Source: Pholidichthys leucotaenia (taxonomy: Eukaryota). Taken from it: DNA of 64,000 nucleotides. The position numbers and the translations under genes are program-made. Where the stretch lies: the NCBI GenBank assembly GCA_020510985.1, contig CM035843.1, forward strand, positions 157,251,922 to 157,315,921, read 5' to 3'. This document shows positions 15,718 through 21,045 of this stretch, piece by piece. Each line of letters opens with the position of its first letter. The first letter of the stretch is position 1. Below the pieces are notes generated by a model, which did not search any database, was not told where the DNA came from, and saw only the letters and a program-made list of their open reading frames with translations.

Positions 15718-16343
15718 CTGGGGGGGGGGGGGGGTGTGCTCAAAATACAAAAGGTGGTAGAGCACTGATAAATAAACAGTATGGGATGAAAAAATTTCAA
15801 CTTCACTTCGTGACTGAAACATTTGTCACCACGGGCGCCATCTTGGCCTCCTCCTTTTTCATCCGTTTTTCATCTTCTGCTCCACCTCCACCACCAGAAC
15901 CACAGAAACACGCTGAGGCCATCTTCGACAAAGGATCTCCCAAAATCGTGCACTTGTGGCCGACACACATTGTGGGCTCACGTTGCCACAGAGACAGGAC
16001 TGCATGTGTATTGTGGGGTGTCACGTCTGCAAGGACAGAGGACTCGAATCTGCAGAAGATAACAAGGAAGTGTGAGATTTGTCTCTTTGTCCCACAGAAG
16101 ATGCCCCGGAGAGAATTCCGGTTCATCAGGAAATGAGAGACAATAGGTGAAGCTTCAAAGGGATGCTTTGTAACTGTATGTTTACTGAAGACACCATGTG
16201 ACTTGAATCCTGATGCTGGAAACGTATAAAAGGGTGTTGAGATATGATTCTTTCTCTTTCCTGCTTTGAGAATGCTAGAAGCTGTGTTCTATCAAATAAA
16301 GCTGGTTTATGACTAAACTCAGCCTCGTCATTTGAGCACATCT
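15718..16343 (+). repeat. 5' LTR (starts TG…, ends …CA; contains TATA box and AATAAA)
   Basis: 15794-16343 is identical to 20494-21043. 'tataaaag' at 16225-16232; 'aataaa' at 16295-16300. Confidence 0.8.
16225..16232 (+). promoter_or_regulatory. LTR TATA box (tataaaag); second copy at 20925-20932
   Basis: Canonical TATA in the U3/R region about 70 bp upstream of AATAAA. Confidence 0.5.
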
Positions 16344-16369
16344 TCTACACTGGTGACCTACGACGGAAA

Positions 16370-17134
16370 ATGAGCAGACAGAATTCTCCCGAGCAGGGCT
16401 CGGCGGAAGCCATCCTGATGGCCGCCTCCACGATCCGGCTGCCCGATTTCTGGCAGCACAGCCCGCGCTCATGGTTTAGTGCAGTCGAGGCGCAGTTCAA
16501 CCTCCGGAGAATCTCCAACGACGACACAAGATTCTACCACATGGTAGCGAAGCTGGACAGCGACACGGTCCAGAGAGTGGAGGATCTGGTTAACCATCCA
16601 CCAGACAGCGACAAGTACAGCGCATTGAAAGACGCGCTGATCAGCCATTTCACCCCCTCAGTCCAACAACGAGCAGAGGGGCTCCTGGCGCTGACGGAGG
16701 CAGAAAACGATAGACCTGCGGACCTGATGGTGAAGATGCTGCAGCTCAAAGCCTCTGAGGACGGCGAATTCATTTTCACCCACCTTTTCCTCCGAACCCT
16801 ACCACCAGCAGTGAGAGTGGCCCTGGCAGAGTTGCCCCGATTGGCCAGGCGAGACTACCATGGGTTGAGTAAGGAGGCGCAGCGGTTGGTCGACGCCCAC
16901 AAGCGGAACGCGGTTTCGGCCGCGGCGGCCAGTCCGGGAACGGCGTCCGGAGACAGCGCAGGTCCAGCGGCTGCGGCGCCAGACGCACCAACGGCGGCGG
17001 CGATGGGAGCCAGACGACGCAGAGCGGAGGACGGCCCGTGCTTCTACCACCGCCGTTTTGCAGAGAGAGCGCACAGGTGCGTCCCACCGTGCAACTTTAA
17101 GCGCCAGGGAAACGCCAAGACCGAGGGCCGGTAG
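16370..17134 (+). CDS. BEL/Pao gag (254 aa)
   Basis: 'MSRQNSPEQG…LPDFWQHSPRSWFSAVEAQFNLRRISNDDTRFYHMVAKLDSDTVQRV…' has DUF1759-like retrotransposon gag architecture. TAG stop at 17132-17134. Confidence 0.75.
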   Translation: MSRQNSPEQGSAEAILMAASTIRLPDFWQHSPRSWFSAVEAQFNLRRISNDDTRFYHMVAKLDSDTVQRVEDLVNHPPDSDKYSALKDALISHFTPSVQQRAEGLLALTEAENDRPADLMVKMLQLKASEDGEFIFTHLFLRTLPPAVRVALAELPRLARRDYHGLSKEAQRLVDAHKRNAVSAAAASPGTASGDSAGPAAAAPDAPTAAAMGARRRRAEDGPCFYHRRFAERAHRCVPPCNFKRQGNAKTEGR

Positions 17135-20100: not shown

Positions 20101-20343
20101 GGGGGCAGAAGGGAGCTGATTTGCATAAACAGGCTCAAACCCGCTTTTGTTCTGGCTGACGAGGAGGTGCAGCTCGCGAGGCCCCCCCGCCGTGGCAGGC
20201 CGCCGAGAGGACATTCTCCAAAGTCTTCACAGAAAGGTGCTAACAGTTTTAATCCACAGCTGCAGAGAGATGTTGCAGGTGCAGCCAAACCAGGTTGCAG
20301 CAGATTCGGCAGAAGGTTAAAACCTAGGCAGTTGGTGGATTGA
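17101..20343 (+). CDS. BEL/Pao pol polyprotein (protease-RT-RNaseH-integrase). The ORF-track start at 17206 is a GTG; the true reading frame begins in the gag overlap
   Basis: DTG protease motif at about 17209; 'FVYLDDILVAS' RT; integrase zinc finger 'HSLAHPGV…CVACQRAK'; DDE core; C-terminus '…KHFLLDLGGRRELICINRLKPAFVLADEE…'. Confidence 0.8.
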   Translation, partial: APGKRQDRGPVAAATLGNENRLLYLTDARSGKQFLVDTGSQLSFITPTYAERLSPSKAPWVSVSAANGSTIKTFGERTMLLSLQGRSFEWTFIVAAVSFNMLGADFLCSHGLLVDLANRRLVNALSFHSIPCTARVAPPTAHASVSAAGGKFHTLLAQFPALTVPTFSATVAKHGVEHFITTTGPPVFAKARRLDPAKLAIAREEFTNLEKLGIVRRSKSPWASPLHMVPKADGSWRPCGDFHRLNNVSAHDRYPIPHIQDFSVHLAGARIFSKIDLVRGYHQVPVRAQDVPKTAVITPFGLFEFLRMPFGLKGAAQTFQRMMDAVLRDLPFVFVYLDDILVASASEGEHEKHLTAVFRRLAEHGLIVNPAKCQFGVAQIDFLGHRVSAEGAVPLPNKVRAITDFPQPQTVKALQEFLGMVNFYNRFLPSAARLMQPLYTALKKQKPANKVEWSPERERAFAQVKSALANAVLLAHPVPTARMALTTDASDVAVGAVVEQFVAGTWQPLAFFSRTLCDSERKYSAFDRELVALHLAIRHFQFWLEGRRFTAFVDHKPLTFAMAKISEPWSGRQQRQLAAISEFTTDIQHVAGKHNVVADCLSRAVAPPSPIGADSVAMAAGPGSDAGARAAPVCVGLDYAAMAAEQVNDADVRALQSGPTGLRLEHRVQQNGMPPLICDVSTGWPRPVVPAAWRRRVFDLVHSLAHPGVRASIKLVGEKFVWPGLRKQVKEWAAACVACQRAKIHRHTKAPLEPFHIPAKRFDHVHVDLVGPLPLSHGHTHLLTMVDRTTRWPEAIPLTSATAEEVARAFLAAWVAHFGVPSDITSYRGPQFISELWSSMARSLGVKIHRTTAYNPQANGLCERFHRSLKAALRASLTDTNWVDKLPWVLLGLRSAPKEDLHASPAELVFAQPLRLPGEFLPDNPAPNGPPAQPWQSGSGANTLPGPVHHSFPHVFVPKALKNAEFVFVKHDAQRPSLWPFYDGPFRVLETGQKHFLLDLGGRRELICINRLKPAFVLADEEVQLARPPRRGRPPRGHSPKSSQKGANSFNPQLQRDVAGAAKPGCSRFGRRLKPRQLVD
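17107..17113 (+). promoter_or_regulatory. Candidate -1 programmed ribosomal frameshift slippery heptamer G GGA AAC (X XXY YYZ) at the gag/pol overlap
   Basis: Gag reads GGA AAC. The pol frame (-1) opens at 17101 right after a TAA and reads continuously through 'GKRQDRGPVAAATLGNENRLLYLTDARSGKQFLVDTGS' into the 1045-aa ORF. Confidence 0.6.
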
Positions 20344-20406
20344 TTAGCAATGTATGGAGTGCTTTGTGTTTTTCTTTTTTTTTTTTGTTATGCCATGCAG
20401 GTTTTG

Positions 20407-21045
20407 CCTTACTAGACGTTTGGGGGGGGGGGTAGTGTGGCCGACACACATTGTGGGCTCACGTTGCCACAGAGACAGGACTGTGTTGACAAAATTTCAA
20501 CTTCACTTCGTGACTGAAACATTTGTCACCACGGGCGCCATCTTGGCCTCCTCCTTTTTCATCCGTTTTTCATCTTCTGCTCCACCTCCACCACCAGAAC
20601 CACAGAAACACGCTGAGGCCATCTTCGACAAAGGATCTCCCAAAATCGTGCACTTGTGGCCGACACACATTGTGGGCTCACGTTGCCACAGAGACAGGAC
20701 TGCATGTGTATTGTGGGGTGTCACGTCTGCAAGGACAGAGGACTCGAATCTGCAGAAGATAACAAGGAAGTGTGAGATTTGTCTCTTTGTCCCACAGAAG
20801 ATGCCCCGGAGAGAATTCCGGTTCATCAGGAAATGAGAGACAATAGGTGAAGCTTCAAAGGGATGCTTTGTAACTGTATGTTTACTGAAGACACCATGTG
20901 ACTTGAATCCTGATGCTGGAAACGTATAAAAGGGTGTTGAGATATGATTCTTTCTCTTTCCTGCTTTGAGAATGCTAGAAGCTGTGTTCTATCAAATAAA
21001 GCTGGTTTATGACTAAACTCAGCCTCGTCATTTGAGCACATCTTC
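20407..21045 (+). repeat. 3' LTR, with a ~50-bp internal duplication near its 5' end relative to the 5' LTR
   Basis: 20432-20480 'gtggccgacacacattgtgggctcacgttgccacagagacaggactg' duplicates LTR-internal 15955-16003. Confidence 0.75.

Follow-up and report, generated by a model that had tools for sequence, protein, structure and literature searches.

The CsRn1 clade of Ty3/Gypsy retrotransposons with long terminal repeats (LTRs), as described by Bae et al. 2008, is characterized by a CHCC motif, a tRNA-Trp primer-binding site (PBS) of the form TGGTGA(G/C)CCCG(T/A) and a polypurine tract (PPT) preceding the 3' LTR (PMC2582038). Members of the clade also display 4-bp target-site duplications (TSDs) and a GPY/F motif in the integrase (IN), carry neither a chromodomain nor env, and make use of -1 frameshifting (PMC2582038). 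In pufferfish, the CsRN1 families encode a Pol of 1,061-1,069 aa within elements of 4.3-4.6 kb (PMC11117352). Here, we analysed a stretch of 64,000 nucleotides from Pholidichthys leucotaenia (contig CM035843.1, positions 157,251,922 to 157,315,921 of the forward strand), hereafter the window, which is teleost DNA rich in transposable elements (TEs) with about 40% GC. An LTR element located there had originally been predicted, at positions 15718-21045, to be an apparently intact and possibly active BEL/Pao retrotransposon. Our data make it highly probable that this element, whose 3' end was corrected from 21045 to 21049, represents a CsRn1-clade Ty3/Gypsy (Metaviridae) retrotransposon that inserted into a teleost genome recently, and that this copy is most likely non-autonomous.

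The element shares with the described CsRn1 members (CsRn1, PwRn1, AgCR-1 to -14 and the teleost CsRN1-1/-2) the Gag motif CX2HX9CX3C, a PPT directly before the 3' LTR, the order protease (PR) followed by reverse transcriptase (RT), then RNase H (RH) and IN with a GPY/F motif, and the absence of chromodomain and env. Its gag and pol overlap in the -1 arrangement, as in many members, and its relatives have 4-bp TSDs (PMC2582038). The PBS resembles the tRNA-Trp type, though the match of the window copy itself stops at 8 nt, and the Pol size of about 1,060-1,080 aa is common to the pufferfish elements (PMC11117352). The window copy differs from the clade by an LTR of 614 bp instead of 174-302 bp, an interrupted PBS, the replacement of an IN catalytic Asp by Tyr and an aberrant left end of the 5' LTR. 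It is a further member of a group already catalogued in teleosts.

Coding capacity and clade assignment

The coding part of the element is composed of two open frames with the following features.

16370 to 17134, plus strand: gag open reading frame (ORF), 254 aa
16439 to 16687, plus strand: DUF7041, the sole Pfam family in gag
17039 to 17092, plus strand: CHCC motif CFYHRRFAERAHRCVPPC, CX2HX9CX3C, gag residues 224-241
17101 to 20343, plus strand: pol frame, 1,080 codons and a stop at 20341-20343, opening right after a TAA at 17098-17100
17197 to 17421, plus strand: PR, weak match to gag-asp_proteas, pol residues 33-107, with DTG (D37; Asp codon at 17209-17211)
17785 to 18261, plus strand: RT, RVT_1, pol residues 229-387, with D276 and with YLDD (residues 336-339) at 18106-18117
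18457 to 18849, plus strand: RNase H, RT_RNaseH_2/RT_RNaseH, pol residues 453-583, with DAS at 488
19165 to 19332, plus strand: IN zinc finger, Integrase_H2C2, pol residues 689-744, with H702/H706/C736/C739
19381 to 19668, plus strand: IN core, rve, pol residues 761-856, with D768 at 19402-19404
19687 to 19689, plus strand: IN E863, just 3' of the Pfam rve match
20050 to 20058, plus strand: GPF of the GPY/F motif, pol residues 984-986

This organization agrees with what had been predicted, namely a gag of 254 aa and a pol of 1,080 codons that starts at 17101, has no internal stop and encodes PR, RT, RH and IN. The predicted Gag-Pol fusion would comprise 248 + 1,076 = 1,324 aa. The Pfam families of pol, in the order gag-asp_proteas, RVT_1, RT_RNaseH_2, RT_RNaseH, Integrase_H2C2 and rve, are the Ty3/Gypsy set, and a PDB search with pol matched the integrases of Ty3 and PFV.

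A search of 5.8 billion proteins returned 4,424 homologues. The best ones are teleost proteins with 60-71% identity, and a Pol from a cestode (Sparganum) is 44% identical. The homologues are named 'Gypsy retrotransposon integrase-like protein 1' or 'K02A2.6-like', and they carry the same Pfam set, many of them together with DUF7041. For comparison at the DNA level, we used 82 related loci, that is, one from Synchiropus splendidus (L001), one from Oryzias latipes (L002) and 80 metagenome contigs encoding a Pol with 44-61% identity to that of the window. The L001 locus is a full copy with 175-bp LTRs, which are 100% identical, and with the TSD ATCC. The CX2HX9CX3C motif is found in 61 of 62 gag translations of the related loci; a CCHC motif is absent anywhere in the window gag.

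Since the Pfam set is that of Ty3/Gypsy, and the CHCC and GPF motifs and the lack of chromodomain and env match the published traits of the clade, the element can be assigned to the CsRn1-clade Ty3/Gypsy retrotransposons and the BEL/Pao assignment rejected. The reading as an intact, autonomous and possibly active BEL/Pao element draws on the two open frames, the identical LTR cores and the canonical slippery site, and BEL/Pao elements do share the plan LTR-gag-pol(PR-RT-RH-IN)-LTR and short TSDs. However, no Pfam match to Peptidase_A17, DUF1758, DUF1759 or a chromodomain was obtained in gag or pol even at E<=10, whereas the RNase H and IN zinc finger score strongly with Ty3/Gypsy families. The gag that had been described as DUF1759-like contains DUF7041 and the CHCC motif instead, and the C-terminal '…INRLKPAF' that had been taken as a BEL/Pao mark belongs to an ending, ...RLKPA, which is invariant in this Gypsy family. 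As, in addition, an IN catalytic Asp is replaced by Tyr (see below), we regard this reading as extremely improbable.

Three other identities were considered and ruled out: a chromovirus, by the lack of a chromodomain; an endogenous retrovirus, by the lack of env, with just 92 nt between the pol stop and the 3' LTR; and a domesticated GIN1-like gene, by the joint presence of LTRs, PBS, PPT and gag.

A substitution in the integrase catalytic triad

The IN of the window copy carries a substitution in its DD35E triad.

19579 to 19581, plus strand: TAC codon of Tyr827, where the IN DD35E triad has its second catalytic Asp

The spacing D768...Y827-X35-E863 fits DD35E, and the consensus S-D-R-G-P-Q-F reads S-Y-R-G-P-Q-F in the window. 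The residue at this position is Asp in all 25 aligned relatives, in 115/115 protein matches bearing the motif and in 70 of the 71 fetched loci. Furthermore, phmmer aligns Y827 with the Asp of H-S-D-Q-G in PFV integrase (SEQRES residue 188, native D185). Replacement of any of the DDE carboxylates abolishes both 3' processing and strand transfer, as with D64/D116/E152 of HIV-1 IN and D128/D185/E221 of PFV IN. The original prediction stated that everything needed for autonomous retrotransposition was present and that inactivating catalytic substitutions would argue otherwise; D827Y would be such a substitution. Of the term 'apparently intact', the open gag and pol hold, but coding competence, given D827Y, does not.

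It could be argued that the element is an autonomous, currently active member of the CsRn1 clade, with D827Y reflecting either a mistake of sequencing or assembly or a private mutation of very recent origin, and with the peculiarities of LTR and PBS doing no harm. Indeed, the LTRs show zero divergence over 560 nt, the remaining catalytic motifs are all present (PR DTG, RT D276 and YLDD, RNase H DAS, IN HHCC, D768 and E863), and the 3' LTR and PPT, which are the templates for the ends of the next copy, are typical of the family. The 'TA' irregularity of the PBS recurs in distant relatives and may be tolerated. Taken at face value, however, the sequence gives Tyr at an essentially invariant catalytic position, and 11 further changes affect columns that are invariant in the 25 relatives (R243H, L531V, R541Q, L677I, R817H, G911A, V916L, R970K, P977S, P981F and D1010N). 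We therefore hold an active element to be improbable and retain the non-autonomous CsRn1-clade copy as the preferred reading.

Structure of the LTRs and of the left end

Both LTRs and their surroundings contain the following elements.

15716 to 15719, plus strand: CACT, left copy of a candidate TSD, which is a TSD only if the insert began at the G-run
15720 to 15734, plus strand: run of 15 G adjoining the 5' LTR upstream, resembling the PPT of the family
15735 to 15786, plus strand: aberrant left end of the 5' LTR, 52 nt starting with TGTG, without relation to the initial 51 nt of the 3' LTR
15787 to 16349, plus strand: shared part of the 5' LTR, 563 nt with one mismatch at 15790, ending in the family-typical ...CTACA
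16225 to 16231, plus strand: TATAAAA of the 5' LTR, with its counterpart at 20925 in the 3' LTR
16295 to 16300, plus strand: AATAAA of the 5' LTR, with its counterpart at 20995 in the 3' LTR
20436 to 21049, plus strand: 3' LTR, 614 bp, TGTGGCC...CTACA
21050 to 21053, plus strand: CACT, right copy of the candidate TSD, directly after the 3' LTR

When the sequence is compared with itself at an offset of 4,700 nt, the repeats 15791-16350 and 20491-21050 agree at 560/560 positions, and extension of the match leftwards to 15787 gives 563/564. The two LTRs had been described as identical over about 550 bp, each with a TATA box and AATAAA. The two signals were found in both copies, and the identity holds over the 560-nt core but does not extend over the whole length, since the left ends differ. 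The 3' LTR has TG...CA termini (TGTGG...CTACA), and its start, TGTGGCC directly after the PPT, is family-like. The left end of the 5' LTR is atypical: in the place of the first ~51 nt of the 3' LTR, it has the G15 run and 52 unrelated nt. In this family, the PPT is normally found only before the 3' LTR, and a G-run before the 5' LTR was never seen in the relatives.

The 3' LTR opens with 48 nt (20436-20483) that exactly repeat an internal 48-mer at 20655-20702 (15955-16002 in the 5' LTR), and the identity of the two LTRs begins exactly at the edge of the first 48-mer (15787). The LTR thus appears enlarged by a 219-bp 5' extension, made up of a 48-nt duplicate of the LTR start and 171 nt. Within these 171 nt, a patch recurs at 3313-3347 and 6033-6067 (97% over 35 nt), and the same patch (15865-15926 = 20565-20626; CACCAGAACCACAGAAACACGCTGAGGCCATCTTC) is also found at 22515-22572 with about 78% identity over 55 nt. 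All these matches elsewhere in the window sit inside ORFs. This arrangement suggests that U3, the LTR part upstream of the transcription start, was enlarged by duplication together with capture of foreign sequence.

If CACT is the TSD, the predicted empty site reads ...CCACAAAC-CACT-TTCCAAACCC.... Clear 4-bp TSDs are present in four relatives (L001, L002, L025 and L061), where the 5' LTR directly follows the TSD. The first 10 nt of the divergent segment (15735-15744, TGTGCTCAAA) are the exact reverse complement of 16331-16340 and 21031-21040, 9 nt before the LTR end; this match has no extension and is marginal (p about 0.01). Otherwise, searches with the 52-nt segment and both flanks in the window and in all fetched loci gave only chance-level short matches. 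The DNA upstream, on the minus strand, was considered as an inverted older copy and ruled out by the lack of extended similarity; the ORF at 15458-15718 on the minus strand has no Pfam match.

Several causes of the odd 5' end are possible, namely retention of the PPT primer, a plus-strand transfer from one to another of two variant RNAs packaged together, a later recombination or conversion with a variant copy, and misassembly at a homopolymer. The latter two belong to an explanation in which the LTR identity and the odd end stem not from a fresh insertion but from gene conversion or recombination, or from repeat collapse or misjoining at a homopolymer in the assembly. The abrupt break of identity at 15787, exactly at the edge of the duplicated 48-mer, speaks for this explanation, as does a G-run before the 5' LTR, unlike in the relatives, in a window where G/C homopolymers are frequent (seven of at least 10 nt). 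Yet a 4-bp CACT flanks the unit, as an integrase-mediated insertion would give, the window contains no second copy that could act as a donor, and no join is visible in the sequence. This explanation appears unlikely, if a little less so than an active element.

The former two causes point to another scenario. Since the LTR cores are identical yet the 5' LTR has a retained G-run and 52 unmatched nt, the copy could be a fossil of abnormal reverse transcription of an integrase-dead genome mobilised in trans, which we put forward only tentatively, as a reading that has the odds against it. The 5' end would fit aberrant plus-strand priming or a plus-strand transfer between two co-packaged variant RNAs, and in the enlarged U3, the 171 nt of foreign sequence flanked by the duplicated LTR start would be consistent with a capture through template switching. 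Whatever its cause, the odd left end is of no consequence for a further round of replication, in which the 3' LTR provides the template for new U3 ends.

Primer-binding site and polypurine tract

The two priming sites are located at the inner edges of the LTRs.

16351 to 16366, plus strand: PBS TGGTGACCTACGACGG, 1 nt after the 5' LTR, of which the first 8 nt match the clade consensus
20422 to 20435, plus strand: PPT, G11 followed by TAG, directly before the 3' LTR

A PBS-like string had been proposed at 16346-16361, and its actual place is 16351-16366. The clade PBS consensus is TGGTGACCCCGACGTGA(T), the complement of the 3' end of tRNA-Trp. A PBS-like TGGTGAC match precedes gag in 49 loci; in 30 of them the PBS starts with TGGTGACCCCGA, and many continue with ...CGTGAT; the consensus TGGTGACCCCGA agrees with the published tRNA-Trp PBS of the CsRn1 clade (PMC2582038). 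The window copy reads TGGTGACC-TA-CGACGG where the consensus is TGGTGACC-C-CGACGT, and thus contains TA instead of C. The same TA (or TAT, TAC) after TGGTGACC is also present in L038, L045, L060, L063, L076 and L079, whose Pol is only 45-49% identical to that of the window copy. This recurrence suggests that the TA variant is either a tolerated bulge in the tRNA-Trp duplex or the mark of an alternative primer. A candidate primer would be a tRNA-Trp isodecoder ending in ...GTAGGTCACCA; ARAGORN detected no tRNA genes in the window.

Avian sarcoma/leukosis virus (ASLV) also has a tRNA-Trp PBS. The clade consensus complements the same tRNA-Trp 3' end, but ASLV is a retrovirus with env, and in the window copy the 18-nt match breaks off after 8 nt.

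The PPT pattern is conserved in the family, in which a G-run (usually 6 G) is followed, after about 2-7 nt, by the LTR start TGT(G/A)G. The LTRs of the relatives end with ...CTACA or a near variant, e.g. CCACA, followed by 1-3 nt and then the PBS.

A conserved frameshift signal between gag and pol

The junction of gag and pol contains the following elements.

17107 to 17113, plus strand: -1 slippery heptamer G GGA AAC, in gag phase, within the gag/pol overlap
17121 to 17150, plus strand: predicted stimulatory hairpin, -19 kcal/mol, after a 7-nt spacer, outer stem CCGAGGG/CCCUCGG, with the gag UAG in the loop
17162 to 17173, plus strand: 3' strand of a possible pseudoknot stem 2, complementary to the loop at 17130-17139

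Apart from GGGAAAC at 17107-17113, gag contains no XXXYYYZ heptamer (Y = A or T), and the gag stop starts 18 nt after this site. G_GGA_AAC is among the most shift-prone eukaryotic heptamers (PMC5009743). Of the 62 loci in which both frames were readable, 59 have pol in the -1 frame relative to gag, and about 48 of these 59 frameshifted relatives carry G GGA AAC in phase within the overlap; other relatives carry GGGAAAT, TTTAAAC, AAAAAAC or CCCAAAC. The gag stop of the relatives is usually located exactly 25 nt from the start of the heptamer. The slippery site originally proposed for this element is therefore in the correct phase and backed by conservation as well as by covariation. In a few relatives (L042 and L061/L074), gag and pol form one continuous frame without frameshift, in line with the mixture of expression strategies that has been reported for this clade.

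Nearly every related locus folds a 10-14-bp hairpin 5-7 nt after the heptamer, with stem sequences that differ from locus to locus. Covariation was assessed on an ungapped alignment of 28 sequences with a 12-pair helix. The helix is paired in 78.6% of the cells, a share that falls to 23-46% once the 3' partners are slid by 1-3 columns. Changes on both sides occur in 11 of the 12 pairs, and none of 500 shuffles reached the observed values. Judged by this covariation, the predicted hairpin is established. Since the -1 arrangement is conserved and the hairpin shows compensatory changes, the predicted frameshift signal is, on comparative grounds, real and clade-wide.

A pseudoknot downstream of 17113 was also considered. 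The loop at 17130-17139 can pair with 17162-17168 and 17171-17173 at -14 to -16.6 kcal/mol. Over the relatives, the pairing of each loop with its own downstream sequence has a mean of -9.65 kcal/mol, versus -7.18 kcal/mol for swapped sequences, and the observed mean was reached in 0 of 5,000 permutations. Among 17 sequences picked by hand, a stem 2 of 7 pairs is paired at 77%, with three pairs changing on both sides. Thus, whereas the hairpin stands, stem 2 is suggestive but not established, and the modelled pseudoknot is plausible but unproven. A search of 15000-22500 yielded no Rfam families at E<=1.

A comparable signal exists in PEG10, a domesticated Ty3/Gypsy gene with GGGAAAC, a 5-nt spacer and a pseudoknot (PMC2800197). 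The PEG10 or sushi-ichi type of signal shares with the window the heptamer G GGA AAC, a spacer that is short in both (5 nt in PEG10 and 7 nt in the window) and a structured stimulator downstream, and the protease Asp motif of PEG10 likewise follows shortly after the shift site (PMC2800197, PMC5009743). PEG10 differs in being an immobile, domesticated, chromovirus-related gene with a defined pseudoknot, whereas the window contains an LTR element of another clade.

Age, autonomy and proposed life cycle

With 0 differences in 560 nt, a back-of-envelope estimate puts the 95% upper bound at about 3 substitutions over both LTRs together (0.0027 per site per lineage). An assumed neutral rate of 2.5-5 x 10^-9 per site per year for vertebrates would place the insertion, or else the last homogenisation of the LTRs, at less than roughly 0.5-1 million years ago. 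The original prediction is upheld in so far as it described a young LTR retrotransposon in which gag and pol are open and a canonical -1 site is present. If the integrase of such a young copy is indeed dead, then either the change to Tyr dates from the last reverse transcription or later, or proteins of other copies served to mobilise the RNA.

Because Tyr replaces the second IN Asp, the PBS departs from the clade consensus and the left end of the 5' LTR is aberrant, the copy is most likely non-autonomous, and the suggestion that it may be active is not supported. As far as can be deduced from its sequence, it is probably immobile without help from other copies and would be mobilised at best by proteins that these provide.

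A number of points weigh against this assessment. The PBS matches the tRNA-Trp consensus over only 8 contiguous nt before the irregularity, and the 614-bp LTR is 2-4x longer than those of the relatives or of published fish CsRN1 elements (134-302 bp). The CACT duplication requires that the G-run be inside the insert, which is atypical. The clade was assigned from diagnostic features and literature instead of from a tree with reference CsRn1, Kabuki and Boudicca. D827Y could stem from an error in sequencing, or it could be one mutation acquired after insertion in a lineage that is otherwise autonomous. Finally, the 12 private changes of the window Pol at invariant columns are the most in the alignment (0-9 in the others), but this count is inflated, as the window has no close sister in it; for the same reason, we did not accept these substitutions as proof of decay.

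For an element of this organization, transcription would start downstream of the TATA box of the 5' LTR and end after the AATAAA of the 3' LTR. Most ribosomes would produce Gag, with its DUF7041 capsid-like domain and CHCC nucleic-acid-binding motif. Some, paused by the hairpin or possibly by a pseudoknot 7 nt downstream, would slip by -1 on G GGA AAC and yield the 1,324-aa Gag-Pol with PR, RT, RH and IN. A tRNA-Trp at the PBS would then prime the minus strand and the G-run PPT the plus strand, and a 4-bp duplication would be made at integration.

Surrounding DNA

A tblastn search with gag and pol found no second copy of the element in the whole window and returned only the distant integrase-like fragment at 61314-61775. 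A look-up of gag by exact sequence gave no match in public assemblies. The other repeats and ORFs observed there are listed below.

2688 to 4198 and 5407 to 6920: direct duplication with a spacing of about 2.72 kb
3174 to 3635 and 5894 to 6355: 153-aa ORF, one in each duplication unit
4664 to 5245 and 7386 to 7967, minus strand: N-terminus of a Sleeping-Beauty/Tc1-like transposase (HTH_SB, HTH_Tnp_Tc3_2), one in each duplication unit
21150 to 22020: AT-rich tandem array, period about 22 bp, unit roughly AAAAAGYCACAAATTTATGAGG, starting about 100 nt after the 3' LTR
22385 to 23827, plus strand: 480-aa ORF without Pfam match, mostly FSFGAAPQS-like repeats, 1.3 kb downstream of the element
33418 to 34095, plus strand, and 42414 to 43040, minus strand: two DDE_3 transposase fragments in opposite orientation
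46372 to 47793, plus strand: LINE-type reverse transcriptase ORF (RVT_1 and ALKBH8_N), in a GC-richer block at 44-48 kb
61314 to 61775, plus strand: integrase C-terminal-like fragment, 34% identity to pol 877-981, E = 2.5e-14

Units similar to those of the tandem array are scattered near 1086-1117, 26581-26720, 57530-58100, 60140-60290 and 62630-63180. The N-terminal part of the 480-aa ORF resembles the 153-aa ORFs at 3174 and 5894, and a homologue search with the 153-aa ORF, which shares the patch with the LTR, found none. Each DDE_3 fragment is located near a copy of one repeat that ends in a run of 10-15 G (33095-33109 and 43591-43600). The fragment at 61314-61775 is probably the remnant of a different Ty3/Gypsy element.

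Implications

The main value of this analysis is a correction of annotation, from BEL/Pao to CsRn1-clade Ty3/Gypsy, for a copy that is not coding-competent. Beyond this copy, the picture obtained from the 82 loci could be used as a set of annotation rules for the clade: the conserved slippery site G GGA AAC or an equivalent, the covarying hairpin whose loop holds the gag stop at a constant position, the tRNA-Trp PBS, and the G-run PPT followed by TGT(G/A)G. These features help to explain why automated pipelines call fish CsRN1 elements gag-less. The zero divergence of the LTRs suggests recent movement of the family in this genome, which matters only for studies of TE dynamics in the host. If the copy did arise by abnormal reverse transcription, the CsRn1 family would be active in this fish now, with defective copies being propagated in trans.

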